NCBI GenBank assembly: GCA_000004985.1
Contig: GG738876.1
DNA: 64,000 bases
Source: Naegleria gruberi
Taxonomy: Eukaryota
Reading direction: 5' to 3' (one strand)
Part shown: in pieces, positions 3,715-50,309 of the stretch
Layout of the letters: the number at the start of each line of letters is the position of its first letter
Numbering within the stretch: the first letter of the stretch is position 1
Program-made: the position numbers and the translations under genes
The notes under the pieces: generated by a model
Database searches by the model: none
Told to the model about the DNA's origin: nothing
Seen by the model: the letters and a program-made list of their open reading frames with translations, nothing else

Positions 3715-5106
3715 TTACATATGTTGATAATCGTACAATATTTGCTCTGTTCTCATAAACATCTCTTCCATTTCTACCTTTCCAACATGGTGTTTCTCGT
3801 AGTGGTGAGTGTACGCCTTTGCATTAAACATTTGGAATGCTTTGGAAATTACCTTATCTAATTGAGGCACAATTGACTGACAATTACTCATTAAGAATGC
3901 AGTTTTCTCAAATCCATTAAATCCTGCTGGATTCTCATTAATATTAATTTTCATAGCTTCCCTTGGATTGATGTAGGATGAGTAAATTTTACTGTTGAAA
4001 AATGGATTGACAAGTTCTGCTTGGATTCCTCCAACTTCTTTTCCTCTCAAAATCATTAAATTGGTTATTGATTTGTTGATCATTGAGTCCCATCTTCTAT
4101 CAGATAAATTCACTTTCCAATTAATACATTCCTCAATAGGAGCATCCGCAATAAGCATTTGATGTAAATGCTTCATTAATCCTTCCCATCTAAAAACACT
4201 ATAATCTTTGCTTTTTGCTGACATGTGTGGTATTATTCTCGAATTTATAATCTTGTAAGCTGGATGCGAGCAAAGGTGTTGGATTGGATCATACAATAGT
4301 TGGCATGCATTATCAGCACAAGTAATTGGAGAGCTAGGTAAAGCTAAGCAACTCATATGGTCAGCAATGACAGTATTCATGTCATTGAATGAAGGACTTT
4401 CTATTCCCATCAATCTTTTACAAGTTAAAAACAATTGGTCATTTTTGAAACAGTAAATACTATCAGAAATTTCATATAATTTCTGTAGTGTGAGCAGAGT
4501 ATTATAATTCTGTACAATGACTTCTCCTGCCTCGTGAGGCCAAACAACTTGGTTCATGAGTAATGAATGAGGAAATTCATCTCTCAAAGTTTGAGAAATA
4601 TGACAACCCATTCCAGAACCAGTTCCACCAGCCATACTTTGCAGAAGAACAAATCCTGATAAACAATCACACAACTCTGCTTCCTTTCTCACTTTTTCCA
4701 AAATTGAATCTCCACAATTAGGTCCATGTACATTAAATCCATATGCCCAATTATTAGCACTTCCTGATTGTTGATGATAAACATTATTTGTATCATATTC
4801 AAATAATTGATTTTCATGCTTCCGATTTGCTGTATTCAATGTATTGTGTATTACTTTCGGTTCCATATCAATCAATAAGGCTCTTGCAATCATTGGATCG
4901 GAAGGATTTTTTGTATTGGGTCTAAAGAAACAATCCATAGCAGAGTCTCCGAAAGGTAAATAACGTTCCTCATTCACTACAAACTTGTCCCCAGCAACAA
5001 CTCTATTCAATCTATTTTGTATGAGTTGGGATGATAAATTCTGAAAAAACGAAAGCCCAACTTGATTACCACATTGGCCAATTTGGAGTGTTATCACATT
5101 GCTCAT
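3715..5106 (-). CDS. delta-tubulin (tubulin superfamily, TUBD1-like), single exon, 463 aa
   Basis: Tubulin GTP-binding loops GQCGNQVG and GGTGSGMG are present. Segments align closely with human delta-tubulin rather than alpha, beta or gamma. Matching segments: MSNVITLQIGQCGNQ; ARALLIDMEPKVIHNTLN; NNWAYGFNVHGP; FVLLQSMAGGTGSGMG; MNQVVWPHEAGEVIVQNYNTLLTL. ATG at 5106, TAA at 3715-3717. Confidence 0.75.
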   Translation of the reverse strand: MSNVITLQIGQCGNQVGLSFFQNLSSQLIQNRLNRVVAGDKFVVNEERYLPFGDSAMDCFFRPNTKNPSDPMIARALLIDMEPKVIHNTLNTANRKHENQLFEYDTNNVYHQQSGSANNWAYGFNVHGPNCGDSILEKVRKEAELCDCLSGFVLLQSMAGGTGSGMGCHISQTLRDEFPHSLLMNQVVWPHEAGEVIVQNYNTLLTLQKLYEISDSIYCFKNDQLFLTCKRLMGIESPSFNDMNTVIADHMSCLALPSSPITCADNACQLLYDPIQHLCSHPAYKIINSRIIPHMSAKSKDYSVFRWEGLMKHLHQMLIADAPIEECINWKVNLSDRRWDSMINKSITNLMILRGKEVGGIQAELVNPFFNSKIYSSYINPREAMKININENPAGFNGFEKTAFLMSNCQSIVPQLDKVISKAFQMFNAKAYTHHYEKHHVGKVEMEEMFMRTEQILYDYQHM

Positions 5107-5178
5107 ATTTTTTTTTAAATTATTTAGTAAAAGAATTTACAATTTTGTATTTTGAAATTAAGAATTAAGAATTTTTTA

Positions 5179-6273
5179 TTAATTAAATATTAAGAGTTTT
5201 AATAGCCTCTTGATTTTATGATTTTTTAAAAATTCATGAGCTAGTAATTTTAATTCATTAAAACTTTTACAACTTTGATTAAAAATAATAATAGAAGAAA
5301 ATAAACCAATAAATTGTTGTTCCATAAATGAATCATGACCAAAATAAATATCCATCTCAGTTTGTAAATAACTATCATCATTACATAAAAGTAATTCATT
5401 ATCAATAAAAGATAAATCAAAATAATATTCAACTCCATTTAATAGACACAATATTTCTCTATTATTATTATTATTATTATTAATTATTAAATGTTTATAA
5501 ATAAATCTCCGAGGTTCAATAGATTCAATGATGGATTTTGGATTATTATTATAGGATATCCAAATATCATTCCATTCACCTTCTTTTAATGGATTAAATG
5601 AAGTATTATTATTATTAAATGAATTAATTAAATTATTATTATTTAAATTATTATCATCATTTAAATTATTAATTGCATGATTAAATGATATATTATTATT
5701 AAATGAAAAATAATCTTTTGAATTATTTAATGTAATTGAATCTATATCAAGTTTAAACCATTTACTTCCTCTTCCAAAACATAGAATACATTGACCACTT
5801 CCTCTTTCAATAAATAATCTTAATAATATTGTAAATCCAGTATAATTAAATAAATGTTCAGGTGCAACTATGGGTCCAACTTTAGGTCGATAAGTTGAAT
5901 ATTCTCCATCAAGTATTGAACCAATTTCTGGATGAATAAATTCTTCATTTTGATAAATATAGGATCTGTAATCAATTCGTTGTTGATCTGTTGTGTGATA
6001 TTTTAATGATTTTGGATATTCATGTAATAGACTATTATTGGAATGTTTAGGAGAATCAATAAATAAATTAAAATCTGAACTATTCACATCAGTTAGTAAT
6101 GATTGAAACCAAAAATTCATTTCACTATGTTTTTTAGATAGCTTTTCTTTTAATCCTGTTGATAATGGATTCATTGTTGATTCGGAATGATGAAAATCAA
6201 TTAATATTAAATTGACCATTTTTTTTGATTGATGAAATTGAAACATCAAAAGTAATGAACATGATAAGTGCAT
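5179..6273 (-). CDS. hypothetical Asn-rich protein; compositional outlier with AT-rich codons
   Basis: ORF 5179..6279 in the track starts on ATT. The first true ATG is two codons in (MHLSCS...). Long poly-N runs are encoded by (AAT)n and (ATT)n. No recognisable domain. It could be a fast-evolving orphan gene. Confidence 0.35.
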   Translation of the reverse strand: MHLSCSLLLMFQFHQSKKMVNLILIDFHHSESTMNPLSTGLKEKLSKKHSEMNFWFQSLLTDVNSSDFNLFIDSPKHSNNSLLHEYPKSLKYHTTDQQRIDYRSYIYQNEEFIHPEIGSILDGEYSTYRPKVGPIVAPEHLFNYTGFTILLRLFIERGSGQCILCFGRGSKWFKLDIDSITLNNSKDYFSFNNNISFNHAINNLNDDNNLNNNNLINSFNNNNTSFNPLKEGEWNDIWISYNNNPKSIIESIEPRRFIYKHLIINNNNNNNREILCLLNGVEYYFDLSFIDNELLLCNDDSYLQTEMDIYFGHDSFMEQQFIGLFSSIIIFNQSCKSFNELKLLAHEFLKNHKIKRLLKLLIFN

Positions 6274-6499
6274 TATCAATATGTAATAAAGTGTAGTTTA
6301 ACAGCATTACAATTTGTAGTATAACCTCAACGATTTCCAAAATAAAATCTTTGTAAAAGTGATTTTTTTCCACTATTTACTGTACAATAGAATTAGGCAA
6401 GTATTTTTGTAAAAAACATCTTCTGGGACATGTGTTAGAAACCACAAAAAAATATTGCCACACTCTTGATCTGTGCACATCAAACATTTGACGAAGAAA

Positions 6500-8139
6500 A
6501 TGTGGGGACAAAGGAAAAAACCTGCTGCTGTTGAAAAAGCCAAGCCAATCCAAGTGAATCCAATTCATGCCGACAAGATTGTTCGACAAATTATTGCCAA
6601 ACACAATTGGCATGGTAAAATTGATAGAATGGATATTGTGAAGAAGTGGGAGAAGGAGAGTATGGACTCTGGCATTTCCAAATCTAGTTTTCTTGTGGCT
6701 ATGGATATTTTGAAAGATATCAAGGAGCTTTCACACACTCAAAAATCATGTTGTGGACACTGTGGTGCCACTCCTAAAAAGAGAGCATACACAGATCACA
6801 ATAGTGATAATGATGTGGATGAGAATGAAACTCTATTCGAAACAGCCAAGAAGAGGGATAAACCTGCTTCTGATCTTGAAGAACCAAAAAAGAAAAAGAA
6901 ATCTGAAGATGATGACGAAAATGACGAAGATGATGAAGATGATGAGGCATATTATTGGAGAAGTACCAAATTCTGTTTGTGTCCATGTGCTCATTGTGCA
7001 TTTGAAGAGAAACAAGTTGGTTTGAACATTTGTCACCAACAAGAAGATCTCATTCCAAAAGAATTAGCAGAAAGAGTCAAGAAACAATTTAGTGAATTGG
7101 TTGAGAATATTCCAGAGGATAAATATGATTGGCATCCTGGATCAAACCAACAGGTTTTGGATATTATTCATCCATCTCTCTATTGCTACTCTAAAAAGCA
7201 TAGCAAATTCAATGGAAAGTTTGAGGATGCAAAACAATTGGAGAAACAAATGGAAACAGCGAAAGTTGAAACACAATGGTTACCAACTGATTTTGAGATC
7301 CAAGAAAATGGAAAAGTCAAACCATTATCATATATTAACAATGTTGATCCAAAAAGTCAGAAAGAATTACAAGAAACCATTTGTGATGTATTGTCACGTT
7401 TCATTGAACCTGTCAAACAATTTATTCCAAAACTTAATGAAAAGAAGGTTCAAGTTATCATTAAGGCTGCTAATGTAATTGTTACACCTGAACAAGGTTT
7501 CTATCCAGGTGGTACATGGCACACTGAAGGTGACAGTGAGAATATTCTTGCCACTGGTATTTACTATTACGAATGTGAAAATGTGAAGGAAAGTGTATTG
7601 GAATTCAGAGCTTCATTGGATGAAGAGAATTTCTATGATATTGAACAGGATGGTGTTGAACAGGCCTGGAATGAATATGGTGTAAGTATTATTATTTCTT
7701 TGGATAATAACAAGTATTTCTATAGATTCATGACGGTGATCTTTTGCTTAAACATTTGGGTGGTGTAAAAACAACTGAAGGTAAATGCATTGTTTTCCCA
7801 AATCAACATCAACACAGAGTGAAGCATTTCTTCCCAAAGGATGCAACTAAGAATGCTGTTAGAAAAATCCTCGTCTTTTTCTTTGTTGATCCAAAAAAGC
7901 CAATAGTTTCTACATCTAACATTGATAATCAGAGAAGAGATGTAGCCATTTCAAGTGCTCTTCCACTTGCTAAGAAGATTACTTTCCCTGTTTTAATTGA
8001 ACATGTAATTCCATTCCTACCATTGATGACTAGAAAACAAGCTGAAGAGGAACGTGTCAAACTAATGGATCATAGAAAATTTAAAAGATCTAAGGATAAT
8101 GAAGAAGTGGAAAGACCTTTCTCGTTGTGTGAACATTAA
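6500..8139 (+). CDS. DUF4246-family protein (fungal-type), 2 exons: 6500..7681 and 7726..8139
   Basis: Conserved DUF4246 blocks: YDWHPGSNQQVLDIIHPSLY, HDGDLLKHLGGV, EGKCIVFPNQHQHRV, ILVFFFVDPKKP. Intron 7682..7725 is 44 nt, donor GTAAGT, acceptor TATAG, phase 0. Track ORF 6473 starts on GTG; the real ATG is at 6500 (context aaaATG). Confidence 0.7.
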
Positions 8140-12593: not shown

Positions 12594-13641
12594 TTATAGC
12601 TGTGAGAGATGGAGAGCTCCTTTGATTCCTGCATGTTCACCATAAACAGAAGGCTTAATAATATTCTTGATACTTTCATTATTTATCATAACGTGATATC
12701 CATTCAATAGTTGAACTGTCTTTTCTCTAATCTTATCAAAGAGGATGCTTCTATTCATGATACCACCACCCATGACAATAACTTGACATGAGGAAATTAA
12801 AATTAAATTGACACACAAGTGTGCAAGATAGTGAGCTTCAATGTCCCAAATTTCATCATCATCAGATATGCTCTTTACATCATGAATGGAAATATTTCTT
12901 CTCTTTACAATTGAAGGTGAAGCTGCCTGTTAGAGTTTTATCATAATTCAATATTCCAAATTCTAATATCACTAACTTACCATTCCTTCCAAGCATCCTT
13001 CAGTGTGGAATGTACAAAATCCCTTAAAACCAGTTTCCATATCTCTTGGATGAAGTGGTGTATAAATATGTCCTGCCTCTGGATGCATCAAACCACTCAC
13101 TGTTGATCCATTAATTACCAATCCAACTCCAATTCCAGTACCAATTGTAACATATGCCAATGATTTAATTCCAGAACCTTTAACAAGTTGATATTCAGCC
13201 ATAGCTGGTCCATTAACATCAGTATCAAATTGAACATGTTTAACTTGTGGAAATTCTCTCTTGAAATACTCGACAATATTAAAACTTCTCCATGAAACTT
13301 TTGGAGTGGAAGGTAAAATACATCCAACATTCACATCAATAGGTCCGAAATTTGCAATTCCAATTCTCTTGATAATTCCACCCAATTCTGATTCCTTTTT
13401 AATGAGAAATTGTTTAATTGGTTCCATTGTCTCGTCTACAGTTTTAGTTTCCGTAATAAAAACATTTTCCATTGCATGTTCAATATTTAATCCAATAGCA
13501 ACCTTATATGAAGTACCTCTTTATATAACATTAGTATTCAAAGTAAATTAATTGATGATGATCAAGTTTACTGTAAATATTTAAAAATGATCAAAAGACA
13601 ACAAACCCTCCTTCAATTCCTACAATCAATTCGTTAGACAT
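12594..13641 (-). CDS. ROK-family sugar kinase (N-acetylglucosamine or N-acetylmannosamine kinase-like), 3 exons: 13641..13607, 13518..12981, 12926..12594
   Basis: Exon 1 encodes MSNELIVGIEGG. Splicing completes the ATP-binding GIEGGGTS motif, as in NAGK (GVEGGGT). The central ROK signature is LAYVTIGTGIGVGLVINGSTVSGLMHPEAGH. The zinc motif CTFHTEGCLEGM-AASP spans intron 2. Intron 1 is 88 nt with an unusual GTTTGT donor. Intron 2 is 54 nt, GTAAGT...CTCTAACAG. Confidence 0.65.
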
Positions 13642-18126: not shown

Positions 18127-20919
18127 ATGTCTCTAAAGGAACCAATGACTTCTTGCGTTCCTGATGCTCTCCAAAGTGTATTGCCGTCATCTCATCAACA
18201 CAAAGCTGGTGATGGTATGATTTGTAATAGGAATGATATTGTTCCAAATTTCAATCATGTTCTTCAACAGGGAACAAGAACATGTGGCCAAATTTCTATC
18301 ATAGACAACAGTAAAAATTCAAACAAACATTTAAGTGAAGAGTTCCTACAACAACATCCAAAGTCCTTGTTTGGCATACATGCCAATAGTAATTTTCTTT
18401 ACTGTCATAATCAATTTGATGATGGTGCCAAAGAAATTACTTGTAACAATATGTTCAATAGACCAAACACATGTACAGAGACCCAAATAAGACAATCAAT
18501 AATCTCGAAGGAAATGGAGATGCATGACAACACAATGGACACTGCTCTTCCTCCATTACGATTTAACATAACTGACCTTAATGAATCAAATTCACCACAT
18601 TTGTCGAGATGCAGCCTACAGCAAAAAATTGAAGTATCCTTCACAAGTCAAAAGTTGAAAGATGAATCAAGAAGATCACCACCAACCTCACAAGGTGCAT
18701 CATCATGCATAACTAGGAATAATAGAGAACCAAATGCAAACTCTGACCTTGCATCTTTAAATATGGAAAGTTCAAACTACAGACCCCTACCTTACGAATA
18801 TGTTCCATCTGTACAGTCAAGCCTTAAATCAGAACCGCTAACAACCAAACATAACATTTACAGAGGAGGAAAAACAAATCTGTCACCACCTGATTTAGGT
18901 ATCACGACTAACAATGATACAACGCTCAATTCTCTAAGGTCGCCTCCCCAACGCCAACAACAACAAGACCAGCACCAAGAGCAAAATCATTCTTTGGGAA
19001 CTCGGGATGATCAGCAAGTAGTCAACGACACAAACAGAACCACCAAATATTCATTTCAACAAATGCAAAAACAACCACCTCTGGTAGAGATGAATCCTGT
19101 CGCTAGTGGTGGATCTTTTGCAACTAAGCAGCTTAGTACTCCTCCTACTCGTAACAACAACAACAATACAAGTACTCATAGTATGATGAGTCAGAGTAGT
19201 TGTACTCCAATTGCTTCTTCAAATCCTCTCTATTCATATAATCATCAACAATCCGCATCTCTTAATAACACTTGCCCACCACCTGCTAATTCATCAGCTC
19301 ATAATCCTCCTTACAGCAATAATAATTTGCTCATGGTATCACAACCACACCATAATTCCTACAGAAATCTTCCTTCAACAATATCACGTGCTTCAACAGC
19401 AACAGGATCAACACTCAGAGATCATGATACAGTGATACAAAGTTCAGCCTCTTCCCTACTACTCCTATCAGAACAAAAACAACCATCTTATATTGGTGGT
19501 GGTTTGATAGCTAATGATTCCGCTAGAAGTTTAGAAGCTGTTGCTGCTGTTCCTGTTGCCCAGGGCTGTACTAGTGAGAGAATCCCTACAACCCAATCAT
19601 CCTTGCATTATTCATCCATTCCACACTCTTCCTCTTCTTTACTGGGCAAAAAGCAAAGAATGACTTCAACAATAACTGCGAGTACTAATATTCCTCAATC
19701 ATCTTTGAACGCTCCTCAACAACCAACTAATCCTCTCTCCAATAATAATTCAATCAAACCTCACCAAACAACTAATATTAAGTTTCATCTCCTTGATGAT
19801 CCAAATCTTAAACAAGATGAGCATAGAAGCAATTTTGTAAGAATTGATGAGGAACAGATACGAAAAGTATTCCATCTTACTCAGAGACAAGCAGCTGCTT
19901 TTTTAGGAGTTAGTTTATCTACACTCAAAAGACGATTCTATGAAATGAGAGAAAGTTTAGGAATGGATAAGTGGCCTACTACAGCAAATGGTACTACAAC
20001 AATACCAGCAACACAAACTAGTGCATGTGTTGTTGGCCCAACCAATTCATCTTCGAGTAATTTGAGTAACAACAATGCAACTTCAAGAAATAATAAGGGG
20101 TCTAGAAAGAATTCTCTTCAATCTGATCAAACTTTGAATATTCCAACAACTCCTCTTACGAATTTGAATGATAATCATTCCTCCTATCATATTGATCCAT
20201 ATAACAATGCTTCCTCCCGTAGAACATCAGTAACTTCTCAAGACGAGTTTACTTATCAAAAAATTGGAACACCACATAATGGAAATTCCTCAATAATGAA
20301 TCAAAATAATCATTCTTCGTATTTACCTCAATCAACAAATAATCTCCCTGCTGTAAATATTTCACTTCCTCCAATAGTTACTTCCCCTTATTCTAACCCA
20401 ACTTCAAAACCCCAACTTCCAAACAATGATAGTCTCGACAATTTTCTTTCTAGGTATGCTCCTAAATCTTTCGATGATATTGCCCAAGATTCTGACAAGT
20501 GCCTTCCAGTTTCAACCACTTTAAAGAGAAGAACCAATGTTTTTGGGCAAGGTCATGATCCAATTCTTATTGCTAAAATGTTTTCTGAAGAGACAACAAC
20601 TAGTAATTCAAGAAAAAGATCCTATCCAAATATTTCTACAATTGAAAATAAGGAATTTGAGAAGGACAGTTACTCATCTCAATTACCAAGACATTCCAGT
20701 TTCAGTAGTCAAGGAAGTATGGATGGCTCATTTGAACCACCAAGAAAAGTCAACAAGGCATTCCCAATTAATAAGAGAGGAAGCACAGACGAAAATGCAG
20801 AACCAAAAACAAATAATCCATCCAACATGAGTTTTATCCTCAATGAAGGAGTTAAGGACCCAACTCATCTTGATAAGGAAGAATGGAATACACTAATGGA
20901 AGCATTTAAAAAACAATAA
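18127..20919 (+). CDS. large low-complexity protein with a C-terminal RWP-RK-like domain (KWP variant); putative transcription regulator
   Basis: 930 aa, single exon. The candidate domain is EEQIRKVFHLTQRQAAAFLGVSLSTLKRRFYEMRESLGMDKWP. Compare the RWP-RK core L..FHL...AA..LGV..T.LKR.CR..GI.RWP: this copy has a 4-aa insertion and K in place of R. The rest is S/T/N/Q/P-rich. Confidence 0.55.
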   Translation: MSLKEPMTSCVPDALQSVLPSSHQHKAGDGMICNRNDIVPNFNHVLQQGTRTCGQISIIDNSKNSNKHLSEEFLQQHPKSLFGIHANSNFLYCHNQFDDGAKEITCNNMFNRPNTCTETQIRQSIISKEMEMHDNTMDTALPPLRFNITDLNESNSPHLSRCSLQQKIEVSFTSQKLKDESRRSPPTSQGASSCITRNNREPNANSDLASLNMESSNYRPLPYEYVPSVQSSLKSEPLTTKHNIYRGGKTNLSPPDLGITTNNDTTLNSLRSPPQRQQQQDQHQEQNHSLGTRDDQQVVNDTNRTTKYSFQQMQKQPPLVEMNPVASGGSFATKQLSTPPTRNNNNNTSTHSMMSQSSCTPIASSNPLYSYNHQQSASLNNTCPPPANSSAHNPPYSNNNLLMVSQPHHNSYRNLPSTISRASTATGSTLRDHDTVIQSSASSLLLLSEQKQPSYIGGGLIANDSARSLEAVAAVPVAQGCTSERIPTTQSSLHYSSIPHSSSSLLGKKQRMTSTITASTNIPQSSLNAPQQPTNPLSNNNSIKPHQTTNIKFHLLDDPNLKQDEHRSNFVRIDEEQIRKVFHLTQRQAAAFLGVSLSTLKRRFYEMRESLGMDKWPTTANGTTTIPATQTSACVVGPTNSSSSNLSNNNATSRNNKGSRKNSLQSDQTLNIPTTPLTNLNDNHSSYHIDPYNNASSRRTSVTSQDEFTYQKIGTPHNGNSSIMNQNNHSSYLPQSTNNLPAVNISLPPIVTSPYSNPTSKPQLPNNDSLDNFLSRYAPKSFDDIAQDSDKCLPVSTTLKRRTNVFGQGHDPILIAKMFSEETTTSNSRKRSYPNISTIENKEFEKDSYSSQLPRHSSFSSQGSMDGSFEPPRKVNKAFPINKRGSTDENAEPKTNNPSNMSFILNEGVKDPTHLDKEEWNTLMEAFKKQ

Positions 20920-21163: not shown

Positions 21164-23236
21164 ATGTCATCAACAATGAACAACAGCAACAGGGAGGAGG
21201 TAACGCCTCTGATACAGAACACTACTAGTGTAGTATCATCAACATCGATAAATAATGGCAATTATCAACAACAAGACACAACACTGATTAGGAGGAATGT
21301 ATCTCCTTCTACATTAAAAAGAGCTGATATTGGAAAAGACTATTATACAGACAATCATAGTAATCGCTCTAGCTCTAGTGATTTATCTAACCTCGAGAAA
21401 CAACCAATTTACAAAGCTAAAGGAACTAAAAAACAAAAATTTCTATTCCATTTCTTTAATATTTCATGCCCACTTTTCATTGTAGTACTGGTTGCTTTAG
21501 GACTGGGAGTGGGATTGATTTTTATACTGTCGAGGACACAAACTGAAGTACAACCAACTGGTACTAGGGCCGCTGTGGCAAGTGATAGTACGATTTGTTC
21601 CGAAATGGGATTGAAAGTCATAAAGGAAAAGAAAGGAAATGCTGTTGATGCAGCCATTGTAGTTGCTTTATGTTTGGGTGTCACTAGACCATTTGCTAGT
21701 GGAATAGGTGGAGGTGGATTTATTACTATTTTCATGAATGAAACAAAGACTGTGGATTTTATTAATTCAAGAGAAACTGCTCCTAGTGCTGCCAGTCAGG
21801 ATATGTATGAAAATAATTATGATGAAAGCGTATTTGGTGGAAAGTCCATTGCTGTTTATGGAGAAATTAGAGGATTACATACAGCTCACAAACTCTATGG
21901 TAAATTACCTTGGAAGGAGTTATTCACTGATGTTATCAATATTGCCAGAAATGGTTGGATTGTTGAGCCGTTGTTGGCTGTGCGATTATCACAGGATGAT
22001 ATTCTTAAATTCCCAACATTGGTACAATTTACAACCATTGGTTCTGATGGAAAGAGAAGAGTTTATCATGAAGGTGAATTAATTAAGAGAACTGATTTGG
22101 CAAATACTTTGGAGAAAATTGCTTCAGATGGTCCAAACATTCTCTATGAAGGTCCAATTGCTCAAAAGATTGTAGAAGAAATACAACAACAAGGTGGCAT
22201 TATTACATTGGATGATTTGAAGAACTATCAACCTGAAAGACCTTTCTATGATGAAAATCCAATTATTTCTCAAAAAGACATGACATTGGAATTGAATGAT
22301 TTTAAGGTGATTTTACCTCCACCACCATCTGCTGGACCTGTTATCAAGTTTATTTTGAGTATTTTGAATAATTTCAAGATTGGTGATAATTCACCAATGG
22401 GTCTTAACTATCACTATATTTTGGAAGCTTTGAAATTTGGATTTGGACATAGATCCAATCTAGGAGATGTTAATTTCTTACCTAAGGAAAATGTTACAAA
22501 ATATATCATTAATCAATTACTAAGTGATAGTTATGCCTCTAGTATTGCATCTGAGAGGGTTTCTCCATCAAGAACATTCCCATGGTCACATTATTATTCA
22601 GATAATTATGCACCTGTTAAGGATAAGGGTACATCCCATTTCTCTGTTATTGATGAAGATGGAAACTCTGTTGCCATGACCACTACAGTCAACCATAACT
22701 TTGGAAGTAAGGTTGCTAGTGCATCAACAGGTATTGTCTTTAATAACCAAATGAATGATTTCACAGTAGATCTTCACAAACCAAATCAATTCGGATTACC
22801 ACCATCTGCAGCTAATGTTATTGCTCCAGGCAAACGACCATTGAGCTCAATGTCACCTGCTATTTTCCTTGATAAGAGTGGAAATAGGGTCAAGTATATT
22901 ATTGGAGCTTCAGGAGGACCAACAATTATCAGTGCAATTATTGAAGTTTTTTATTCAATTGAAAAGTTTAAAGTCCAACCAAATCTCGCAGTTGCACTTC
23001 CAAGACTTCATGCTCAACCTGGTTCAGATGTAGTCAAAATGGAAGAGGGTTTCAATAGACAAGTTATCACTGCTCTACAAGAAAAGGGACATACCTTTGA
23101 ACCTGTTCAAATTCTTCCAGATGGCCATACTATAGGATGCTGTCAAGTCATTCAAGTTAGCAGCACTGAAAATGACCAAAATCTTTTCCTTCCTGGAACA
23201 GATCCAAGAAAATTAGGTAGTCCCGCTTGCTTTTAA
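21164..23236 (+). CDS. gamma-glutamyltranspeptidase (GGT, Ntn-hydrolase), type II membrane anchored
   Basis: 690 aa. N-terminal signal-anchor FHFFNISCPLFIVVLVALGLGVGLIF. Autocatalytic and catalytic region TSHFSVIDEDGNSVAMTTTVNHNFGSKV. PLSSMSPAIF and GASGGPTIISAI motifs are typical of GGT. Confidence 0.85.
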   Translation: MSSTMNNSNREEVTPLIQNTTSVVSSTSINNGNYQQQDTTLIRRNVSPSTLKRADIGKDYYTDNHSNRSSSSDLSNLEKQPIYKAKGTKKQKFLFHFFNISCPLFIVVLVALGLGVGLIFILSRTQTEVQPTGTRAAVASDSTICSEMGLKVIKEKKGNAVDAAIVVALCLGVTRPFASGIGGGGFITIFMNETKTVDFINSRETAPSAASQDMYENNYDESVFGGKSIAVYGEIRGLHTAHKLYGKLPWKELFTDVINIARNGWIVEPLLAVRLSQDDILKFPTLVQFTTIGSDGKRRVYHEGELIKRTDLANTLEKIASDGPNILYEGPIAQKIVEEIQQQGGIITLDDLKNYQPERPFYDENPIISQKDMTLELNDFKVILPPPPSAGPVIKFILSILNNFKIGDNSPMGLNYHYILEALKFGFGHRSNLGDVNFLPKENVTKYIINQLLSDSYASSIASERVSPSRTFPWSHYYSDNYAPVKDKGTSHFSVIDEDGNSVAMTTTVNHNFGSKVASASTGIVFNNQMNDFTVDLHKPNQFGLPPSAANVIAPGKRPLSSMSPAIFLDKSGNRVKYIIGASGGPTIISAIIEVFYSIEKFKVQPNLAVALPRLHAQPGSDVVKMEEGFNRQVITALQEKGHTFEPVQILPDGHTIGCCQVIQVSSTENDQNLFLPGTDPRKLGSPACF

Positions 23237-23803
23237 TAAATACCTTTTAAGGTGTATAGGATTCTTTATAATTTCTCATCTGGTCAGAGATTCCTCAATT
23301 GCACATTTGCAACACTCTTGTATTAGAAAGGAGAATATTGAATAAGGATGTTGTCGTTGTTTTCATTGAGATAGAGATTAGAATTTTATTTGTGAATGTA
23401 AAACAAGGTAATTTTAGAGTCAATAAGGATGAGTTGAAAGAGATAGAGCTACTATGCGATTGTATCTTGATTTTCATGGATCCTGATGGTTTATGAAAAA
23501 ACCGAACTGGTATTTTGAAAATTGACCAAATTCGAATGCATATCCCAAAACACATTATCTTTCGACATTAATGGTCCATTACATCAATTCAATAAATACG
23601 AATCAAAGTCTCGCTTTAAATTGTACTATCACAATCCATCAAAATGTGTGTTTTTTTAACGCGACACGAATTGGATCCCTACATGTAATTCCATCTCTTC
23701 ACTGGTTTAGATACCATTCAATTACGATTTTTGTGAGCCCACACCACTTGTTTCTATTGAGTTTTTTACCTTGTACAGTCGAAAAAAACACCACAACACA
23801 ATA

Positions 23804-25480
23804 ATGTTCCAATCTCAAATACCTTCTCAACAACTCTCAGCGATATGTATGAGAGAACAACAATCTCAACAGCCACAACAACATTATCCTAGAGATGCAT
23901 TAGAACTAAATCAACGATTCAAGGATCATCAACAATTTAAAGGTGATCATCCTTTTCATCACAAAGAGCTAGATTCATTAATTTATCAACAACCTCAACA
24001 ATACAATAAGGAAGATTTTGCTTTTCAAAACTCAGAAAACACTACAGCTCCATTAAATGTGATGGCAGTAATTTCAACAAGTTCCTCAATAGAACCAAGG
24101 TTAAGACTGGACATGTACAACAATGCATCTGGCCATTCCTCCTCGCAAGCGGCCACAGATTCAATCAAAATGGAAACAAAACAAGAGCTACCCATGCAGA
24201 TGCTCAATAAGGATAACAAAAATTCTCTCATAACCATGAGCACAACTCCCCATACTAATATTAACAGCAATAACCAACATGCAACTAATTTATTTCAACA
24301 TCATGTGAACATGCAGAATAATAACCATTCAGCTTCACCTATGAACCATCACCATTCTACAGATTCGATATCCTCACTCAATCATAATACTACAACATGT
24401 AAACAAAATTCTCAAAATTCCTCATGTCACATCCAACCATCCACTCAACAACAACCCTTCTTCCACAATTCACAGCCAATTAATCAAGAGACGCAACCAC
24501 AACAAAACACAGTTCAAGACAATTCAAAAAATAGGCCACAAAGGAGAAATAGTAACAGCTCCTGTTCTCCAAAGAAACGAACCACATTTGGGATGTCTAA
24601 TCATTATCAACAACAACATGTTGGTGGCACATCAGTAAGAGGTGATGGTGGCCAACAATCTTACATGCCATTTAATGCTTCTCCATCCAAATATAATAAC
24701 AATTTAAACACATCTACATGTGGTGAAATAATATCGAATAGCAATGGAACCACTTCTGAATATCATCAATTTATGAACAATAATTATTCATTGCAACAAC
24801 GAATTGAAACATCATCTCGATCAACAACTTCCCTACAAAATGTTTCTCCAATGCATGCTCAAAAGTCCGTGCAAGTTTCACCACCTCCATCTTCAAACAA
24901 CAGCACCACCACATTCAACATTCAACAGGAAAAGATTAAAAAACCAAGAAAAACCATCAAGAGAAAGTATCAATTCAAGAATGTCAAGTCAGGAGAGAAT
25001 GTTAGATCTAATTCCTCAAGTCCATCTTCTCCATCCTCCTCTCAGAATCAACATTCTAATGATTCTAAATGTAATTCCATTGAGACTGTATCCTATTATA
25101 CAACTACAGATGGAAAGGAATTGGATTTAACTGGCTATTATCAACATCAATTACAGTATACAACTTTTGATTTCTATAATAATTCATCAGTATCAATTGT
25201 AAAGGCAAATCCAACCTTTGATGTAAAGAGTTTCAAGAGGAGTGTTGATTCAATTTCAAAGGATGAATTACTCAGAGTTTTACATTTAACTCAACAACAG
25301 GCGAGTACAATATTGGGCTGCAGTGTTTCAACCATTAAAAGAAGATTTTATGGTTTGAGAAACGAGTTGGGTTTAACCAAGTGGCCAAATAATTACTTTG
25401 AATATAGTCATATGAAATTGTTTGAGGAGATTTATCCACTTTCCTTAAACTTTATTTTGAATAAGGGTGAGAGCAGATAG
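23804..25480 (+). CDS. paralogous low-complexity protein with C-terminal RWP-RK-like (KWP) domain
   Basis: The track ORF starts at a TTG at 23771; the first ATG is 23804 (MFQSQIPSQQ...). The C-terminal block is KDELLRVLHLTQQQASTILGCSVSTIKRRFYGLRNELGLTKWPNNYFEY. It is collinear with the domain of the 18127..20919 protein. Confidence 0.55.
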   Translation: MFQSQIPSQQLSAICMREQQSQQPQQHYPRDALELNQRFKDHQQFKGDHPFHHKELDSLIYQQPQQYNKEDFAFQNSENTTAPLNVMAVISTSSSIEPRLRLDMYNNASGHSSSQAATDSIKMETKQELPMQMLNKDNKNSLITMSTTPHTNINSNNQHATNLFQHHVNMQNNNHSASPMNHHHSTDSISSLNHNTTTCKQNSQNSSCHIQPSTQQQPFFHNSQPINQETQPQQNTVQDNSKNRPQRRNSNSSCSPKKRTTFGMSNHYQQQHVGGTSVRGDGGQQSYMPFNASPSKYNNNLNTSTCGEIISNSNGTTSEYHQFMNNNYSLQQRIETSSRSTTSLQNVSPMHAQKSVQVSPPPSSNNSTTTFNIQQEKIKKPRKTIKRKYQFKNVKSGENVRSNSSSPSSPSSSQNQHSNDSKCNSIETVSYYTTTDGKELDLTGYYQHQLQYTTFDFYNNSSVSIVKANPTFDVKSFKRSVDSISKDELLRVLHLTQQQASTILGCSVSTIKRRFYGLRNELGLTKWPNNYFEYSHMKLFEEIYPLSLNFILNKGESR

Positions 25481-25898: not shown

Positions 25899-28276
25899 TC
25901 ATTTACTCATATCAATGGAAATATCATCAGTGAGGGTTTGGGTGCTGTGTGTAGAGATAGATGAAATACTCTCTCTTATCTTTTTGATAGCAAAGTCTAG
26001 TAAACCAACGATTGGAAAATCAAGCCATATTTTCTCATCATTATTCATTTCGTTTGTCCATAGAATCAATCTTTGAAGGAGGAATGATTTTTCTTCACTA
26101 GAAATTTGGGATGGATTAGTAAGGCATTTGGAGAGCTCTTGCCTTAGTTCTATCCTCTCTTTATCACATGGTTCAATATAGATTGGTAAAGTGAGCATTG
26201 AGACAGACTCTCTAAATTGGTTTCCTAATTCAAAGTGTTGGACATAGTACCTTCTTGGTGAGTTAGAATCAATGGCCCAGTAAAGGGTATGCGTTCCCTC
26301 TAAGCCTTTGAGCTCAAAATTACCCATATTATCAAAGTGAATCTGTCCATCTTGGACTAGTTCTTTAAATTGCTCTAGTTCGTCTTTGAAAGTCGTAATA
26401 AAAGGAGTATCTTTAGGCAGACTATTGGTAGATGAAAGAGCTGTGGCGCGGTGCTTAATAAAACTTTGGACATCTGAACTGACATATACTCTACCACCAT
26501 GTGATTTGCTTTCAGTTCTTGCAGCTTGGTTGACTGCAGTGCCAAAGTAATCATATCTCTTGGTGGTTGGGTCAAATTGGGATTCAATTTCTTTTCCAAA
26601 GTGAACGCCCATTTTAACTCTTGGTCCTTTGTAAATAATTTCATTATTCCACTTGACTTCTTTCATGTCTGGAAATTCCAACATTTCAGGTGTCCAATGT
26701 CCTTTCAATAAGCCGTTTTGAATAGCAAAACAGCAACCTAGTGCTTCTATTGGATCATTGAATGCGATCATAAAACTGTCTGATTGGGTTTTCACTTCAT
26801 ATCCTTTAAACTTTCGAATATTTTCTCGCACTATTCTATGGTGAATGGCCAATACTTTCTTCATCAAATCTGAATCTAAAGTCCACATTAAGGATGAATT
26901 TTGTATGTGAGTGAAAACAATGCAAATAGGAGCTACTTTTGGAGCTAGACGATTTTCTCTCTTTCTAATCGAATTCTTTCTAACAACCCATCCAATCAAG
27001 AACACAAAAATTCCAACCAATAATATTGCAATAGTAAAACTGACAACACTGATGGAAATAATGAATTCGTTTCTCTTCTCAATTGGTAATACAGGCTCAG
27101 CAGTCCAAGCTTTCCACTTGGCTGTATTGTTTGGGTTTGATAACCACTTACAAGCAGCATCTTCTAAAGTCATTGAATTGTAAGCAACATATCCCATCAT
27201 GGTTACTTGATCTCTACCTCTATAATTCAAATTTTTAAGAAAGTTTTGAACACTTGAAGAGAGAGAAGAGACAGCACTCGTTTGGAGCTTACTATATGTT
27301 GACAAAGGGTAATCACAATCAACCAATCCATTGGCAATATTGTGAGCTGTATGACAGCTATCAGTAAATTGAGGAAGATAGATTCTAGATGGTGGATTAG
27401 GTCTACTGAATAATTGATGTGGAAACCAAAAATATGAAACCATCTCTTTTCGTTGTTGTTGAGCGTTTTGTAAATTTTCAATGAGATAGGTTTCAGTATC
27501 ATTATCAGGTGCATATTCCAACTGCAAATTCAACTTTAAATTCTTGATAATCTGATCATCATAATTCACCCAAGTTTTAGAGCCACTGACCATTCTTGTC
27601 ATGTTTGAAAGTCTAAAGTATCTGTAGTTATTTTGAACTGCATCCTTCATGAAATTTGGAATGAAAAACCCAATTTGGCCACTCGGACCCAAATCGCCAA
27701 TGTCTGTAATATGTTTACCATTAACCACATATTTTCTAAGATGAAAAGATTACTTGTTAGAAAGATCAGCGCATGCACTTACTTGTAATTTTCAAAGTTA
27801 GATAATTTCCAGTATTCTAACAACGCAATTGGACGTGTGGCTCCTTCCTTTTCCATAAGTTCCAAAGAATCCACAATATTTAGTTTTAAAATATCAACGC
27901 AAACTCCTAATTTTTCCTCGAGTATTATTGTTGCAAGAGCATTATTCATCGAGCTCGCCAGCCAATTATTTTCAATAAGAGTTATTCTTGGTGAAAAAGA
28001 GGAACAGTGGCTTGAAGATGCATCTTCAGGTAGACAACTGGCAACTGTTTTTCTAGTCGACGAAATATGTTGATACTGATGGGTTTGCATGTTTTCCAAT
28101 GGCGATCCACTCACAAAATAATAAGTTTCGTAATCGTGATTGTCAAGCTTATCAGCACCAATAAACATGCTAATAACAAATACAAAAAGTATTAATTTTG
28201 TGATAATGGATAATCTGGACCGTTTCCAATAATGTAATCCAACAAAACTACTACTACTAATATTCCTCGTAATCAT
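25899..28276 (-). CDS. receptor-type class III adenylyl cyclase, paralog 1: signal peptide, about 390-aa extracellular domain, 1 TM, catalytic domain; 2 exons 28276(or 28516)..27783 and 27735..25899
   Basis: The catalytic domain shows the adenine-specifying Lys in KGYEVKTQSDSFM and Asp in KRYDYFGTAVNQAARTES, which suggests ATP rather than GTP specificity. TM helix is FTIAILLVGIFVFLIGWVV. Exon 1 carries a hydrophobic signal-like segment (LSIITKLILFVFVISMFIGA). Intron 27782..27736 is 47 nt, GTAAGT...CTTAG, phase 2, with a CTAAC branch. The junction reads ...LEYWKLSNFENY-K-KYVVNGKHITDIGDLGP. The start codon is ambiguous: in-frame ATGs lie at 28516, 28276 and others. Confidence 0.7.
26590..26990. 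repeat. about 400-bp segment nearly identical at nucleotide level to 31160..31560 in the paralogous cyclase gene
   Basis: One run is 100% identical: ctcttggtcctttgtaaataatttcattattccacttgacttctttcatgtctggaaattccaacatttcaggtgtccaat, at 26616..26698 versus 31187..31269. The flanks are about 90% identical. The rest of the two genes is much more diverged. This fits gene conversion between tandem paralogs. Confidence 0.6.
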
Positions 28277-28835
28277 AATATTCAATATAAAATAGCAAAT
28301 CCACCACATAATTCTCGAATCAAACATGATAAAATCACAATATGAAATTTCATCCATTTGTATTTCAAACTTTCTTTGATTAATCGTGTATTCATCATCT
28401 CCTACTTCTTGTTCATTCCGTCTTCCCTCCAGAAGCAGCATTAATACGTTGTTGTTGCCAGCACAAGTTGTATCGGAAAGAACATGTTTGCCCATTTTTT
28501 TTCGTTCTCTCGTCATGTAAGATCGTGATGCCTAGCCTTATCTTCTTTTTTATACCAAATCCAGCTTGCGCGCCAAAGATTCTCTCATTACAGCGAATTT
28601 AGAGAGTTTCATTAAGGAAATGATGCAATAGAATATTGTGTTATTTATTTGTAATGGATTATATTCTATCATCTCCCAGTGCAGTTCTTCGACATTTCGT
28701 TTATATTGAATTGAAAGAAGTATTTATGCTTGAAGTATAGATAACTTACAATTTTGTAACTTTTAAATTCTGAATGAGTTGAGTAATGTTGTGATCGAAA
28801 ATGAACTTTTTTTCTAAAAATAAAAATATAAAAAA

Positions 28836-30370: not shown

Positions 30371-32832
30371 TTATGCTCCAGATTGAATCAATTCTTCAGG
30401 GCATGACATTACTGCGATAGAACTAGAAGAAGAAAGCGACTCTTTTCTACAGGGTTGAGCGACACTATTTCGTCTTTTCCTGTTATCTGGACGGATAATT
30501 GTATCTTCATATGCATATTCTTTGTTATCTGAAACAATGTTATCCATTTCAGCAGGAAGATAATGAGAGATGACAATTGGTATGAGATGCTTCAATTCCA
30601 ATTCAGTCCATGCATCCTTTTCTTCTTCGGTATCATTATTCCACAATACAAGCCTATGCAGAAGTTTACTCTTCTCATTTTCATTCCATTTCGATGGATC
30701 ACTTATACATGATGCACACGATTGTTTCAATTCCATTCGTTCCTTATCAATTTTCTCTCTCAACAATGGAACTGATAATCCAGAGTCAATTCTAACATGA
30801 GGCAACAATTCGAATTGTTGAATGTAGGAAGTTCGAGGGGAAGTTGTATCCATAATCCAAAACAAAGTGTGATTACCTTCCAATCCTTTCAAAATAAAGT
30901 TTCCCATATTTTCGAATTGGATTTTTCCAGAGTAAAGCAATTGTTTGAATTGAAAGATTGGATCCTTATGAATGGGAAACCCCTTATCCATGCAAATATT
31001 GCAACGAGAAGCTCCTCCCATTTGATGCTTTAGGTGGTCGTGAATATTTGAGCAAATGTAAATTCTTCCTCCTTGAGCTTGATTTTCAGTTCTAGATGCT
31101 TGGTTGACCGTCGTGCCAAAGTAATCATATCTCTTGGTGGTTGGATCAAAATGAGCTTCCACTTCACTGCCATAATGAAGGCCCATTCTAACTCTTGGTC
31201 CTTTGTAAATAATTTCATTATTCCACTTGACTTCTTTCATGTCTGGAAATTCCAACATTTCAGGTGTCCAATTTCCTTTCAACAAATCATTCTGAATAGC
31301 AAAACAACAACCAATTGCTTCTATTGGGTCACTGAAGGCAATCATAAAGCTGTCTGATTGAGTTTTCACTTCATATCCTTTAAACTTTCGAATATTGTCT
31401 CGAACAATTTTGTGATGAATGGTAACAACTTTCTTCATCAAATCTGAATCCAAAGTCCACAACAGTGAAGCATTCTGAATATGAGTGAAAACAATGCAAA
31501 TAGGTGGTGCTTTTGGGGCCAATCTATTTTCTCTCTTTCTAATCGAATTCTTTCGAATGCAAAATCCACAGCAAAAAACACAAAAACCAATTAGTATAAT
31601 AGCAAGTGTAAACCCCACAACAGTCATTGAAATAATAAAGGCATTACTCTTCTCCGGTTGAAAAGGTGGCTCTGAAATCCAACTCTTCCATCTCTCTGTA
31701 TTATTGCCTTTCAAAATCCAAGTACAGGCAGCATCCTCTTTCGACATTTTATCATACGAAACTAAGCCTAACAGTTCAATCTGGTCAGCATTCGTCAGTT
31801 TCATCCTTTCCAAAAAGTTTTGCACTTTTTCAGGAAAACTCAACACTGCCCTAGTTTGCAGTTTACTGTAAGTAGTCATGGCAAAATCACAATCCACCAA
31901 ATTATTCTCCACATTGTGAGGTGATACACATTCTGCAGTAAATGGTGGAAGTGTCACACGTTGTGGAGCATTAGGTCTACTGAATAATTGATGAGGTGTG
32001 AAAAAGTAGGAAACCAGCTGCTTTCTCTCCCGTTCTGCATTTCTCAACTCTTGAATCAGAAACTTCTCAGTGTAATTCTGAGGAGGATATTCCAAAACGA
32101 GATTCAATTTCAGATTTTTAATAACCTGCTCATCAAAGTTGACCCAAGTTTTTGCTCCACTAATGTAACGTGTAGCATTCACTGTACGATAGTATCGATA
32201 ATTCAAGCTCAGTGGATTATCTATAGCCATCCAATTAGGAATATACCATCCAACTTGTCCTAATGGACCTAAATCTCCAATATCCATTACATTTCGTCCA
32301 TTTAACACATACTTTCTAAAACATTTCAATAAGAAACATTCAATTATTATTCCACCATTCCAGAAAACAATCCAAAAATCAATCACAGTTTAATTATTTA
32401 TCAAGTAAAAATTGAGATTTCTTACCTGTAAACATCCAAATGATTTAACTTCCAAAATTCTAACAAGACGTAGGGAACCTCATCTCCTCTACTCTCCATC
32501 ACTCTAAGAGATTCATCCACGCCATATTCCTCAACATCGACACATACTCCAAGTACTTCCTCGAGGAAAACTTTTGCTATTTGAATGTTCATCGTTGTTG
32601 CTAACCAATTATATTGGATTAGTTTAATTCTGGGCGAAAGTGGTGTGCATGCAGTTCCTGAGGCGGTATGAAGTGAAGGAAGGCATGATGATGATGTTGA
32701 ATATGATGTTGGTGAAACATGTTGTTGGTTTGATGGTTTAGAATGTGCAAACAAGATGACTAAACACAAGACTAAACTCAATCGAAAGAAGTAACGAAAT
32801 AGAAGGGAATAATTGCGTCGCCGTTTCTTCAT
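30371..32832 (-). CDS. receptor-type class III adenylyl cyclase, paralog 2; 2 exons 32832..32426 and 32315..30371
   Basis: Signal peptide MKKRRRNYSLLFRYFFRLSLVLCLVILFAHS. The probable start at 32832 is internal to track ORF 32422..33132. Same architecture and same intron position and phase as paralog 1. Intron 32425..32316 is 110 nt, GTAAGA...TTTTAG. The junction reads ...LEFWKLNHLDVY-R-KYVLNGRNVMDIGDLGP. Catalytic motifs: KGYEVKTQSDSFMIAF and RYDYFGTTVNQASRTE. Confidence 0.7.
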
Positions 32833-33994
32833 TGTTTCTTTTCTCAAAAACCACACAAACAACCAATACAGTACCAACTCCAGTTTGGATTCGTTCAGTT
32901 TCCCTTTATCTATATTAGGACATGAGACATATAAATATTGAGGACCAAGTTTCCTCCACATGTTGAGAGATTCTATCCCGCATGTTGGGATCCATGTCTT
33001 CTCATTTCGTACAAAATTATTAAGGCCTACGACGTTTAGTGATTGCTTGTTCTGTACAGTTTCATTTGAGGAAATAGATATTGATAAAAAAGATGAGAAG
33101 GATAGTAATTGATCACAAGATAATAGTTTCATTTGTGCAAGTGATGATAAAGGTAATTACTAGAGCTGGTTTCGGATTGGTTGGTTTCGAATAATATTGG
33201 TTAACAGATGTAAGTTGATGATGATAAAATAACCTGTGTGCTATCATGTTATCTGGTTTCGGCAGTTTTTTAAATGATTATTGTGTTCTATCTTTCTAAT
33301 AATTATTGTGATCAATTTCGAATACACATGTATTATCAGAAACGTACGTTACTATTTTGAACTCTCTACGAAAGTAATAGGCAGTTAATGGCAAGACATT
33401 ATGACAATCATTTGATTGAAAAAGCAAGAATAGTTTCAGTTTCCAATAATGAAATCTGCAAATCGTACAAGTTCATTCTCTCTGATTTTCAAAAGACCTT
33501 TTCAATAATCAAATCTTCCAAAATCAACACGTTCCCCTTACAACCCGAACCATTAAGCTTTTCAAGTTTTTTATCCATACTTTCGAATTTTCTTTCGAAT
33601 TTAATTTCTTATTAAGAAGCACAAGAGACCATTGTATTTTTCCAAAACAACACTTTAAATAAAACTTTTCTTTTTCACTTTTGGCTATTGGGAGTAATTT
33701 CACAAACCACTCTCTATTTGTCGATTTACAACAATATCCAAAATTCTCATCCAACACTATTAATATTTTTTTACAAACACTTGAAAAAATGTTTGAAAAA
33801 ATGTTATGAAAATTTTCTCAAATCTCTTTCGATTGATTTAGTAATTAATTGTTAAATTTATTGAAATTCAACCTTTTTAAAAAGACAAGCGAAGTTATTG
33901 GTCTTGCTTGTTCATAGATGGCATATGCACGTAAAGTTGTCACAACTCGATACCAAATTAAACAACTGCAAGATTTCGAATAAGATTAAAAAAA

Positions 33995-40179: not shown

Positions 40180-40613
40180 CACACATGATGATAAATGTTC
40201 AATTAATCACAATTTTAATGATGAAAAAAACAAACCCTTCTTTGAAGATCTTGTTGCAGGCATTTTTTTGGCGGTAATTGTTCTTACCCATTTCCTCTAA
40301 AAGCTGGAAACATAAAAATATTCCAAATACACTTTTCAGCCTTGGTTATTCCGTAACTTGAAGAGCCTAACAAAATTGGATTGAATTTTATTGTCTTGTT
40401 CATTATCAAATTAAGCAAATTTCAAACTCAGCATGTACAATTAATCGAAAATAAAACTAAAATATTCTCAAGTGTGATGAGTGCTTGGGAGAATATTTTT
40501 AGGTTTTAAAGAGATCCAAAATTTTATTGTTTAAAAAAAACTTAACACAACAACAACTAGCAGCATTTCGGAACCTTCTATTATCAAGAAGTAAATTTAA
40601 TAATAACAACAAC

Positions 40614-49127: not shown

Positions 49128-50309
49128 TATAATGTTGTTGTTATTATATGATGATGATGATATTTAAATTACACTATATTCAAGAAGCTTAATTATTACT
49201 AATATTATTATTATTATTATACATATGAGTTATTGTTGTTAATGATTATATTATATACAAATTATTAATAATAATTTCAAAATATTGAGAGAAATTATTC
49301 TTCTTCTCTTTCAAATTGTTATGAAAATTCCAATCAATTTTTGGACCACCAACAAGTAAAACTACCACACGTGTTGATATATAATTGCAATAGGTCTCTC
49401 AAGAGTTTTCTAAAGCAAATAATAAATTGTGTCGTCGTCGTAACTTTTTGTATTTTCCACCGAGGTGCAACAAATAGGGAAACGTGTTGAAAAAGTAGGT
49501 TTTTTCCTTTGCAATTTGTTTCAAACAAATGGGTATCTTCTTTGAGAACAAATAAAGAAATATAACTGTAAATTGCAGAAGAGAAGCGACCACAAATAGA
49601 ATTGAAACAGTTGTGCAAGAGGAATGTTTGAAACAATGTGCAGTACACTGTAATGATGATACTGATCGGTTGCTGTTGGTCGATGATAATAAAAAACCAA
49701 ATCAAAATGAAGGTGTGATGCAATCAATAGTGGTCGTTGAGTGTCAAGTCAATCGGAGCTTCCTAGGCAGAGCTCCTTTATGCACTTTTTTTATTGTGAT
49801 TGGGGAAGTACTCCTTCCAATATGAATGTGAGAAATTAACGTGTAAATGCTCTTTTTAGTGAAGGAGCAAATCGGTATCTTATTGTGTGAATTAGTGAGA
49901 AATTGGAATTGAGGTAATAGATTTTAGCTGAATGAGTGATACGTGTCCATCCACACTTAATGTCTTCCAATTAGAAAGGCACTAAGAACATGAAATATTT
50001 CTTCTTCGGCCGATGCTACTCCTGAATTATTGCATCCTATCCTACTCCCAAAGTTCTTCCACCAATTAATAATATAAAATTAATACGCAACACCATGGCT
50101 TTAGGAATCTTAAATATGTTCATGGTATTTACAATGATTTTTGGATCCAGGATTTCGAAACTCGTACCGTATCATCATCACCATATTATTAATATTAATA
50201 TTGAAAATTACTAAATGGAAAATTATTAAAATTAATTTTGGCAATTTAAAAAAAATTTTCTCAACACTTGGATAGGAGAGGATTTTTTGTATTATTCGGA
50301 ACAATCATT

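Follow-up and report, generated by a model that had tools for sequence, protein, structure and literature searches.

The 64,000-nucleotide stretch of contig GG738876.1 analyzed here (hereafter the window) almost certainly derives from the nuclear genome of Naegleria gruberi NEG-M and harbors the single delta-tubulin gene of this organism (positions 3715..5106, minus strand) together with the gene encoding its CKK-domain protein, NgCKK (60074..62440, minus strand), with the 55-kb linkage between the two best explained as coincidental. As the original prediction, a reading of the DNA letters alone, had proposed, several window genes were compared to find the closest genome. The tubulin open reading frame (ORF) is identical to NAEGRDRAFT_69007 of N. 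gruberi (100% identity, 100% coverage), and an exact-sequence look-up of 10 further ORFs returned N. gruberi NEG-M proteins for seven, the CKK protein among them, while the remaining three are probably multi-exon or mis-started. The N. gruberi proteins matched exactly all sit on one 396,977-bp contig, and with eight proteins (the tubulin and seven others) matched exactly over their full length, no origin other than N. gruberi is realistic. The taxonomy record gives the lineage of N. gruberi as Eukaryota; Discoba; Heterolobosea; Naegleriidae. Consistent with this placement, the next-best tubulin matches are all heterolobosean and fall off in line with organismal kinship, from N. lovaniensis (72% identity) through Willaertia magna (59%) to Acrasis kona (41%, named 'tubulin delta').

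The locus is already known, with a published genome (reportedly from 2010), a listed delta-tubulin and a CKK domain of solved structure; nothing in it is new. It is useful as a calibration, as two divergent proteins were rightly classed from raw sequence and weak 'fungal' cues were over-read.

Class and fold of the tubulin

The delta-tubulin gene is a single intron-less ORF, running from ATG to stop and encoding 463 residues, that is named 'Tubulin delta chain' in UniRef and still carries the label 'hypothetical protein' at NCBI. Among its best 120 homologues, every named protein is a delta-tubulin, with 38-43% identity over 100% of the query, and these named homologues span molluscs, annelids, hemichordates, vertebrates, oomycetes and amoebozoans. 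We assessed class membership with a neighbor-joining tree (405 columns, Kimura distances, 300 bootstraps) in which delta-, epsilon-, gamma-, beta- and alpha-tubulins were sampled, without zeta/eta references. The window tubulin falls within the delta clade at 100% bootstrap support, alongside Chlamydomonas UNI3, human TUBD1 and Xenopus tubd1; the epsilon clade is equally well supported (100%), and the gamma, beta and alpha sequences branch outside the delta clade. The topology of a larger, 126-sequence tree agrees. Identity to the window tubulin is 31-44% for delta-tubulins outside Naegleriidae (40-42% over the full length for gibbon and Xenopus), compared to 24-26% for epsilon, 27% for human gamma, 25% for beta and 21% for alpha. 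The human alpha, beta and gamma outgroup sequences were checked against the PDB, where gamma proved 100% identical, residue by residue, to 7QJ0 and beta and alpha matched over their full length at 1030 and 1053 bits, respectively; an epsilon probe was used only for retrieving real vertebrate epsilon-tubulins.

With HMMER, 1.84 billion cluster representatives were searched exhaustively, which yielded 432 proteins at E<=1e-30. Of these 432 representatives (50% clusters), the 150 best, all scoring at least 199 bits, are exclusively delta-family members with no outgroups, and form one star-like family with no deep split, set off from epsilon and gamma by a long stem. All eight functionally named members sampled from these 150 are annotated 'tubulin delta', with the remaining names blank. 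The window tubulin has several alignment blocks in common with delta-tubulins only, namely NQVVWP, GEVIVQNYN, KAY.HQY and an insertion around MLIA.A..EE.INW; vertebrate delta-tubulin shares NQVVWP, GEVIVQNYN and the insertion with it, as well as the lack of an acidic C-terminal tail. The original call of delta rather than gamma is thus borne out by both the tree and the names of the best matches. Although Pfam cannot separate tubulin classes and human gamma is slightly closer in identity than beta or epsilon, the probability that the window tubulin is a divergent gamma-tubulin is vanishingly small, as this view is refuted by the position of gamma outside the fully supported delta clade and is further opposed by the 38-44% full-length identity to animal, oomycete and amoebozoan delta-tubulins and by the existence of a separate gamma-tubulin gene in Naegleria (PMC4819266; PMC9081340).

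The protein has the hallmarks of a tubulin, with a Pfam Tubulin match (PF00091, E=4e-46, 158 bits against a cut-off of 33), an N-terminal GQCGNQ loop and the nucleotide-binding signature AGGTGSG at residues 159-165. Residues G10-Q11-C12-G13 and G160-G161-T162-G163-S164-G165 are unchanged throughout a 40-sequence delta-tubulin alignment. No Pfam Tubulin_C match was obtained for the window tubulin, and the same is true of the other delta-tubulins listed. Alignments place a delta-type insertion at approximately residues 320-345 and reveal the absence of the acidic C-terminal tail. No delta-tubulin structure was present in the PDB copy searched, and the best sequence matches there were beta-tubulins, at approximately 143 bits over the N-terminal 250 residues. 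An AlphaFold2 model generated from the 40-sequence alignment has a mean predicted local distance difference test score (pLDDT) of 93.5 and a predicted template modeling score of 0.92, and in a Foldseek search of the PDB the full-length model superposes on beta-tubulins (template modeling scores of 0.78-0.85 over approximately 470 columns, 24-26% identity). Based on this model, the window tubulin is predicted to adopt the complete two-domain fold, comprising the GTPase and the intermediate/C-terminal domains.

Two further features of the gene were apparent. The H1-S2 loop, approximately residues 30-49, exceeds its counterparts in vertebrate and Acrasis delta-tubulins in length, a difference from the model members of the class, and is predicted to form a beta-hairpin with strands at residues 30-38 and 41-49 (pLDDT of approximately 83-85). 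In alpha/beta-tubulin, the H1-S2 loop is a site of lateral contacts. Upstream of the gene, just 72 AT-rich base pairs (5107..5178) separate the delta-tubulin ATG from the stop codon of the next ORF (5179..6279, minus strand), indicating that the promoter and 5' untranslated region are either very short or overlap the neighboring gene.

Basal-body role and the eta-tubulin label

Orthology and published expression data indicate that the role of the gene most likely lies in triplet-microtubule basal-body assembly. Delta-tubulin, a non-canonical member of the superfamily, acts with epsilon-tubulin in Chlamydomonas, Paramecium and human cells, and in humans also with TEDC1 and TEDC2, all four proteins interacting physically in human cells; it is required for building or maintaining the triplet microtubules of centrioles and basal bodies and their inner architecture, and the centrioles of human cells that lack either delta or epsilon have no triplets and subsequently disintegrate (PMC11896610; PMC11156431). 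Both the requirement for triplets and localization to these organelles are demonstrated in human cells and inferred for other species. In Naegleria flagellates, the two basal bodies are built de novo and contain cartwheels and triplet microtubules (PMC4819266; PMC9081340), in agreement with the triplet basal bodies that the original prediction expected from a delta-tubulin. Epsilon-tubulin and SAS-6, two of the genome-wide companions that it suggested looking for, are also reported for Naegleria, with two reviews listing single gamma-, delta- and epsilon-tubulin genes and an encoded SAS-6 (PMC4819266; PMC9081340); no epsilon-tubulin gene lies within the window. Both delta and epsilon are induced before basal-body assembly and were predicted to be basal-body proteins from that induction (PMC4819266).

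The amoebae, devoid of centrioles, assemble two canonical triplet basal bodies de novo upon turning into flagellates. Taken with the orthology, these reports are consistent with a mechanism in which the window delta-tubulin, together with epsilon-tubulin, would establish or stabilize the triplet microtubules and the inner basal-body architecture during this switch. Like the model delta-tubulin hosts, Naegleria builds triplet basal bodies and has epsilon-tubulin. It differs from them in that its basal bodies arise without a pre-existing centriole, and it lends itself well to the study of de novo centriole assembly.

Several points weigh against this account of the locus. The source identification is based on exact protein matches rather than on an alignment of the window DNA, and the apparent separation of the tubulin from zeta, the sister class of delta, rests on best-hit naming and literature. 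A literature search returned no localization or loss-of-function results for the delta-tubulin gene in Naegleria. In addition, a 2024 preprint reports that Naegleria 'epsilon- and eta-tubulin' are upregulated in differentiation and mitosis and never mentions delta (bioRxiv 10.1101/2024.01.08.573270), and this mitotic induction may indicate a role beyond basal bodies. The 'eta-tubulin' of the preprint may correspond to the window gene, labeled differently there, or to a further Naegleria gene, a question that comes from the literature and not from the window sequence. If it is the window gene, a delta-class tubulin would be induced in both mitosis and flagellate differentiation; induction of a ZED-module tubulin in the acentriolar mitosis of Naegleria, whose amoebae divide without centrioles, would be mildly interesting. 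Extending this thought, the ZED-module tubulin might have a centriole-independent job in the acentriolar spindle and the CKK protein might be minus-end-selective only on the divergent microtubules of Naegleria itself, readings that we consider unlikely and that do not arise from the window sequence.

The label used in the preprint, which draws on gene trees, also bears on the alternative that the window tubulin is a zeta/eta member and not a delta-tubulin in the strict sense. Delta and zeta are invariably recovered as one well-supported group, and eta has been merged into zeta by Findeisen et al. (PMC4202323); trees built without a zeta reference, for which other authors use Xenopus zeta-tubulin (bioRxiv 2025.01.03.631223), leave room for such an assignment. 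However, none of the best 120 matches is named zeta or eta, even though these include amphibians such as Xenopus, which has zeta, and neither the unanimous naming of the eight sampled cluster members nor the single, undivided family formed by the best representatives points to a second class. The UniRef name is likewise that of a delta chain, and both Naegleria reviews list delta and not zeta (PMC4819266; PMC9081340). On this indirect evidence a zeta/eta identity is very improbable, and we provisionally retain the assignment to delta proper.

The CKK-domain protein and its distance from the tubulin gene

The second microtubule-related gene of the window (60074..62440, minus strand) is an exact match to N. 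gruberi NAEGRDRAFT_50049 (XP_002675779.1; UniProt D2VJG4) and encodes an ORF of 788 residues. The original assignment of a CKK domain holds in a profile search, in which residues 629-776 (60113..60556, minus strand) match the Pfam family CAMSAP_CKK (PF08683, E=2.5e-20, 73 bits against a cut-off of 27). Moreover, the segment from residue 621 to residue 788 shows 100% identity with chain W in PDB entries 6QUY and 6QVE, which is named 'CKK domain protein [Naegleria gruberi]'. The window protein and the solved NgCKK thus share the same domain with no differences, the structure covering the C-terminal domain and not the N-terminal approximately 610 residues. The construct used by Atherton et al. 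in 2019 comprised residues 612-C of XM_002675733.1 (PMC6868217). The protein also matches mouse CAMSAP CKK structures by sequence.

Outside the CKK domain, the N-terminal approximately 620 residues are extremely acidic, with long E/D runs and low complexity, and contain no domain recognizable by Pfam; CAMSAP_CKK is the only Pfam family in the 788 residues (E<=0.01). Relative to human CAMSAP1, the CKK domain itself is split by a Ser/Thr-rich, low-complexity insert of approximately 37 residues (695-731) that belongs to the Naegleria protein, such that the human domain is matched in two stretches, residues 626-694 and 732-778 (E=6.6e-10). As CKK is the sole Pfam family and the CH and CC1/coiled-coil modules of the metazoan CAMSAP/Patronin architecture were not detected by Pfam, 'CKK-domain protein' is a better name than CAMSAP/Patronin orthologue.

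Cryo-electron microscopy established that NgCKK has the CKK fold and docks at the intradimer junction of tubulin, between two protofilaments (PMC6868217), a fold and binding site in common with metazoan CAMSAP/Patronin proteins such as human CAMSAP1. In contrast to the metazoan proteins, NgCKK has a shifted footprint, does not induce protofilament skew, and decorates the whole lattice of mammalian microtubules with no minus-end preference by total internal reflection fluorescence microscopy, an assay that, as the authors state, was limited to mammalian microtubules and did not extend to native Naegleria ones (PMC6868217). In vitro, the protein is a lattice-binding microtubule-associated protein for which minus-end preference, the activity that defines CAMSAP/Patronin, is reported to be absent. 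CKK domains were earlier known from N. gruberi and Phytophthora and have been proposed for the last eukaryotic common ancestor (PMC6868217). When the NgCKK domain (60077..60637, minus strand) was run against 5.8 billion proteins in a word-indexed search, the only match was the domain itself, with even other Naegleria species missed, whereas the delta-tubulin did find N. lovaniensis (72%). Either fast evolution or a sensitivity limit of the search may account for this result, which is uninformative on the distribution of CKK domains or on their absence from fungi, a point that the original prediction had cited as reported.

The presence of both genes in one window raises the possibility that they form a functionally linked, co-regulated microtubule gene neighborhood. 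Both are microtubule-related, and a gene for a CH-domain coiled-coil protein (33995..37696) lies in between. Nevertheless, 55 kb and more than 20 unrelated genes separate the two, among them cyclases, gamma-glutamyltranspeptidase, a helicase and a JmjC protein, and nothing on co-expression of the CKK gene was found in the literature. Naegleria has several hundred cytoskeletal or flagellar genes. Two or three cytoskeletal genes in a window of approximately 30 genes would be unremarkable by rough inference rather than computation, and we consider a functional neighborhood highly unlikely; coincidence would be the simplest view of the linkage.

Lineage cues and the remaining genes of the window

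The original prediction combined the delta-tubulin and CKK genes with what appeared to be fungal-type genes and introns, and proposed a centriole-bearing opisthokont-like microbe, for example a zoosporic (chytrid-like) fungus or a related protist. The part of this inference that concerned triplet-microtubule basal bodies stood, whereas the opisthokont or chytrid placement did not, as window ORFs are exact N. gruberi proteins and the organism is a heterolobosean of the Discoba; according to a Naegleria paper, more than 1.5 billion years separate Naegleria from the animal/fungal lineage. The proposal had a basis in that the source organism does have flagella, that DUF4246 and Suc_Fer-like domains occur in the window, and that the window does contain short introns in which a GTAAGT donor is followed by a branch site of the CTAAC type. 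Set against these are the exact protein matches, which already refute it, and the heterolobosean identity of the next relatives of the tubulin. Chytridiomycota, moreover, reportedly have epsilon and zeta and no delta-tubulin (PMC4202323; PMC10056924; bioRxiv 2025.01.03.631223), such that the chytrid example is disfavored by its own key marker; other zoosporic fungal clades are noted to retain the full module (bioRxiv 2025.01.03.631223). With the TACTAAC motif not enriched and one of the supposedly fungal proteins unconfirmed, as detailed below, an opisthokont-like source has next to no probability compared to N. gruberi.

Two of the three proteins cited as fungal-type are real. A DUF4246 ORF is present at 6473..7768 (plus strand; PF14033, E=2.8e-43) and opens with GTG, making an upstream exon likely; a literature search on DUF4246 found no paper. 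The protein described as Apd1/Aim32-like corresponds to a sucrase/ferredoxin-like (Suc_Fer-like; Apd1/Aim32 family) ORF at 50268..51371 (plus strand; PF06999, E=1.9e-28). The third, named Hir3/CABIN1-like, is the first exon (62667..63932, plus strand) of a TPR-repeat protein gene that runs past the window end, and the Hir3/CABIN1 assignment, unconfirmed, was rejected as the protein yielded only generic TPR families in Pfam and designed-TPR matches in the PDB, with nothing specific. NCBIfam returned no match for the key window proteins.

The claim of yeast-like short introns with TACTAAC branch points was similarly divided, in that short introns exist and the TACTAAC signature is at chance level. 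The exact motif occurs four times in the window, compared to 4.66 expected, with the copy at 6092 in coding sequence and that at 63953 in a plausible intron. This putative 41-nucleotide intron begins at 63929 (plus strand) with a GTAAGT donor, followed by TACTAAC at 63953..63959 and the first AG at 63968..63969. A 47-nucleotide intron (27736..27782, minus strand; GTAAGT...TTCTAAC...TTAG) interrupts an adenylate/guanylate cyclase gene between ORFs 25899..27728 and 27779..28516, and another short intron is indicated by its sequence pattern near 52720 (plus strand). These three introns have GTAAGT or GTATTT donors and CTAAC-type branch sites. The combined pattern GTAAGT..CTAAC..AG was found twice, compared to 0.67 expected, and is not significant as 15 of 100 shuffles reach two occurrences. 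A CTAAC-like branch site reflects pairing with the U2 small nuclear RNA and is not a fungal trait. The fungal-type evidence is therefore weak and not lineage-specific, given that the Hir3 call is unconfirmed, TACTAAC is at chance and Pfam matches of the remaining window ORFs carry no fungal signal; neither the DUF4246 and Suc_Fer-like domains nor the CTAAC-type branch sites of the short introns place the genome in fungi.

Pfam further identified two proteins of the RWP-RK family, at 18127..20919 and 23771..25480 (both plus strand), which flank a gamma-glutamyltranspeptidase gene (21164..23236) and are alike only in the 45-residue RWP-RK motif (53% identity). Plants, algae and slime molds are the best-known carriers of this DNA-binding family, a distribution at odds with a fungal reading of the window. 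Two adenylate/guanylate cyclase genes, at 25899..28516 and 30371..33132 (both minus strand), are tandem paralogues with 59% identity across 586 residues. Their intron donors (GTAAG) occur at the matching codon position, LLEYWKLSNFENYK followed by GTAAGT in one and LLEFWKLNHLDVYR followed by GTAAGA in the other, and the pair looks like a tandem duplication in which the intron was retained.

Additional matches in the window include GLTSCR1, a JmjC/RIOX protein, a Ras/Roc GTPase and a RhoGEF. A 166-residue ORF at 12972..13472 (minus strand) matches the ROK family (E=8e-26), whose sugar kinases and repressors are mostly bacterial, and probably represents a single exon within a sugar kinase gene of Naegleria. 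The 2175-residue DEAD/Helicase_C helicase encoded at 40527..47054 (plus strand) weakly matches DDX60 in its PIN-like domain; in animals, DDX60 is an antiviral helicase induced by interferon.

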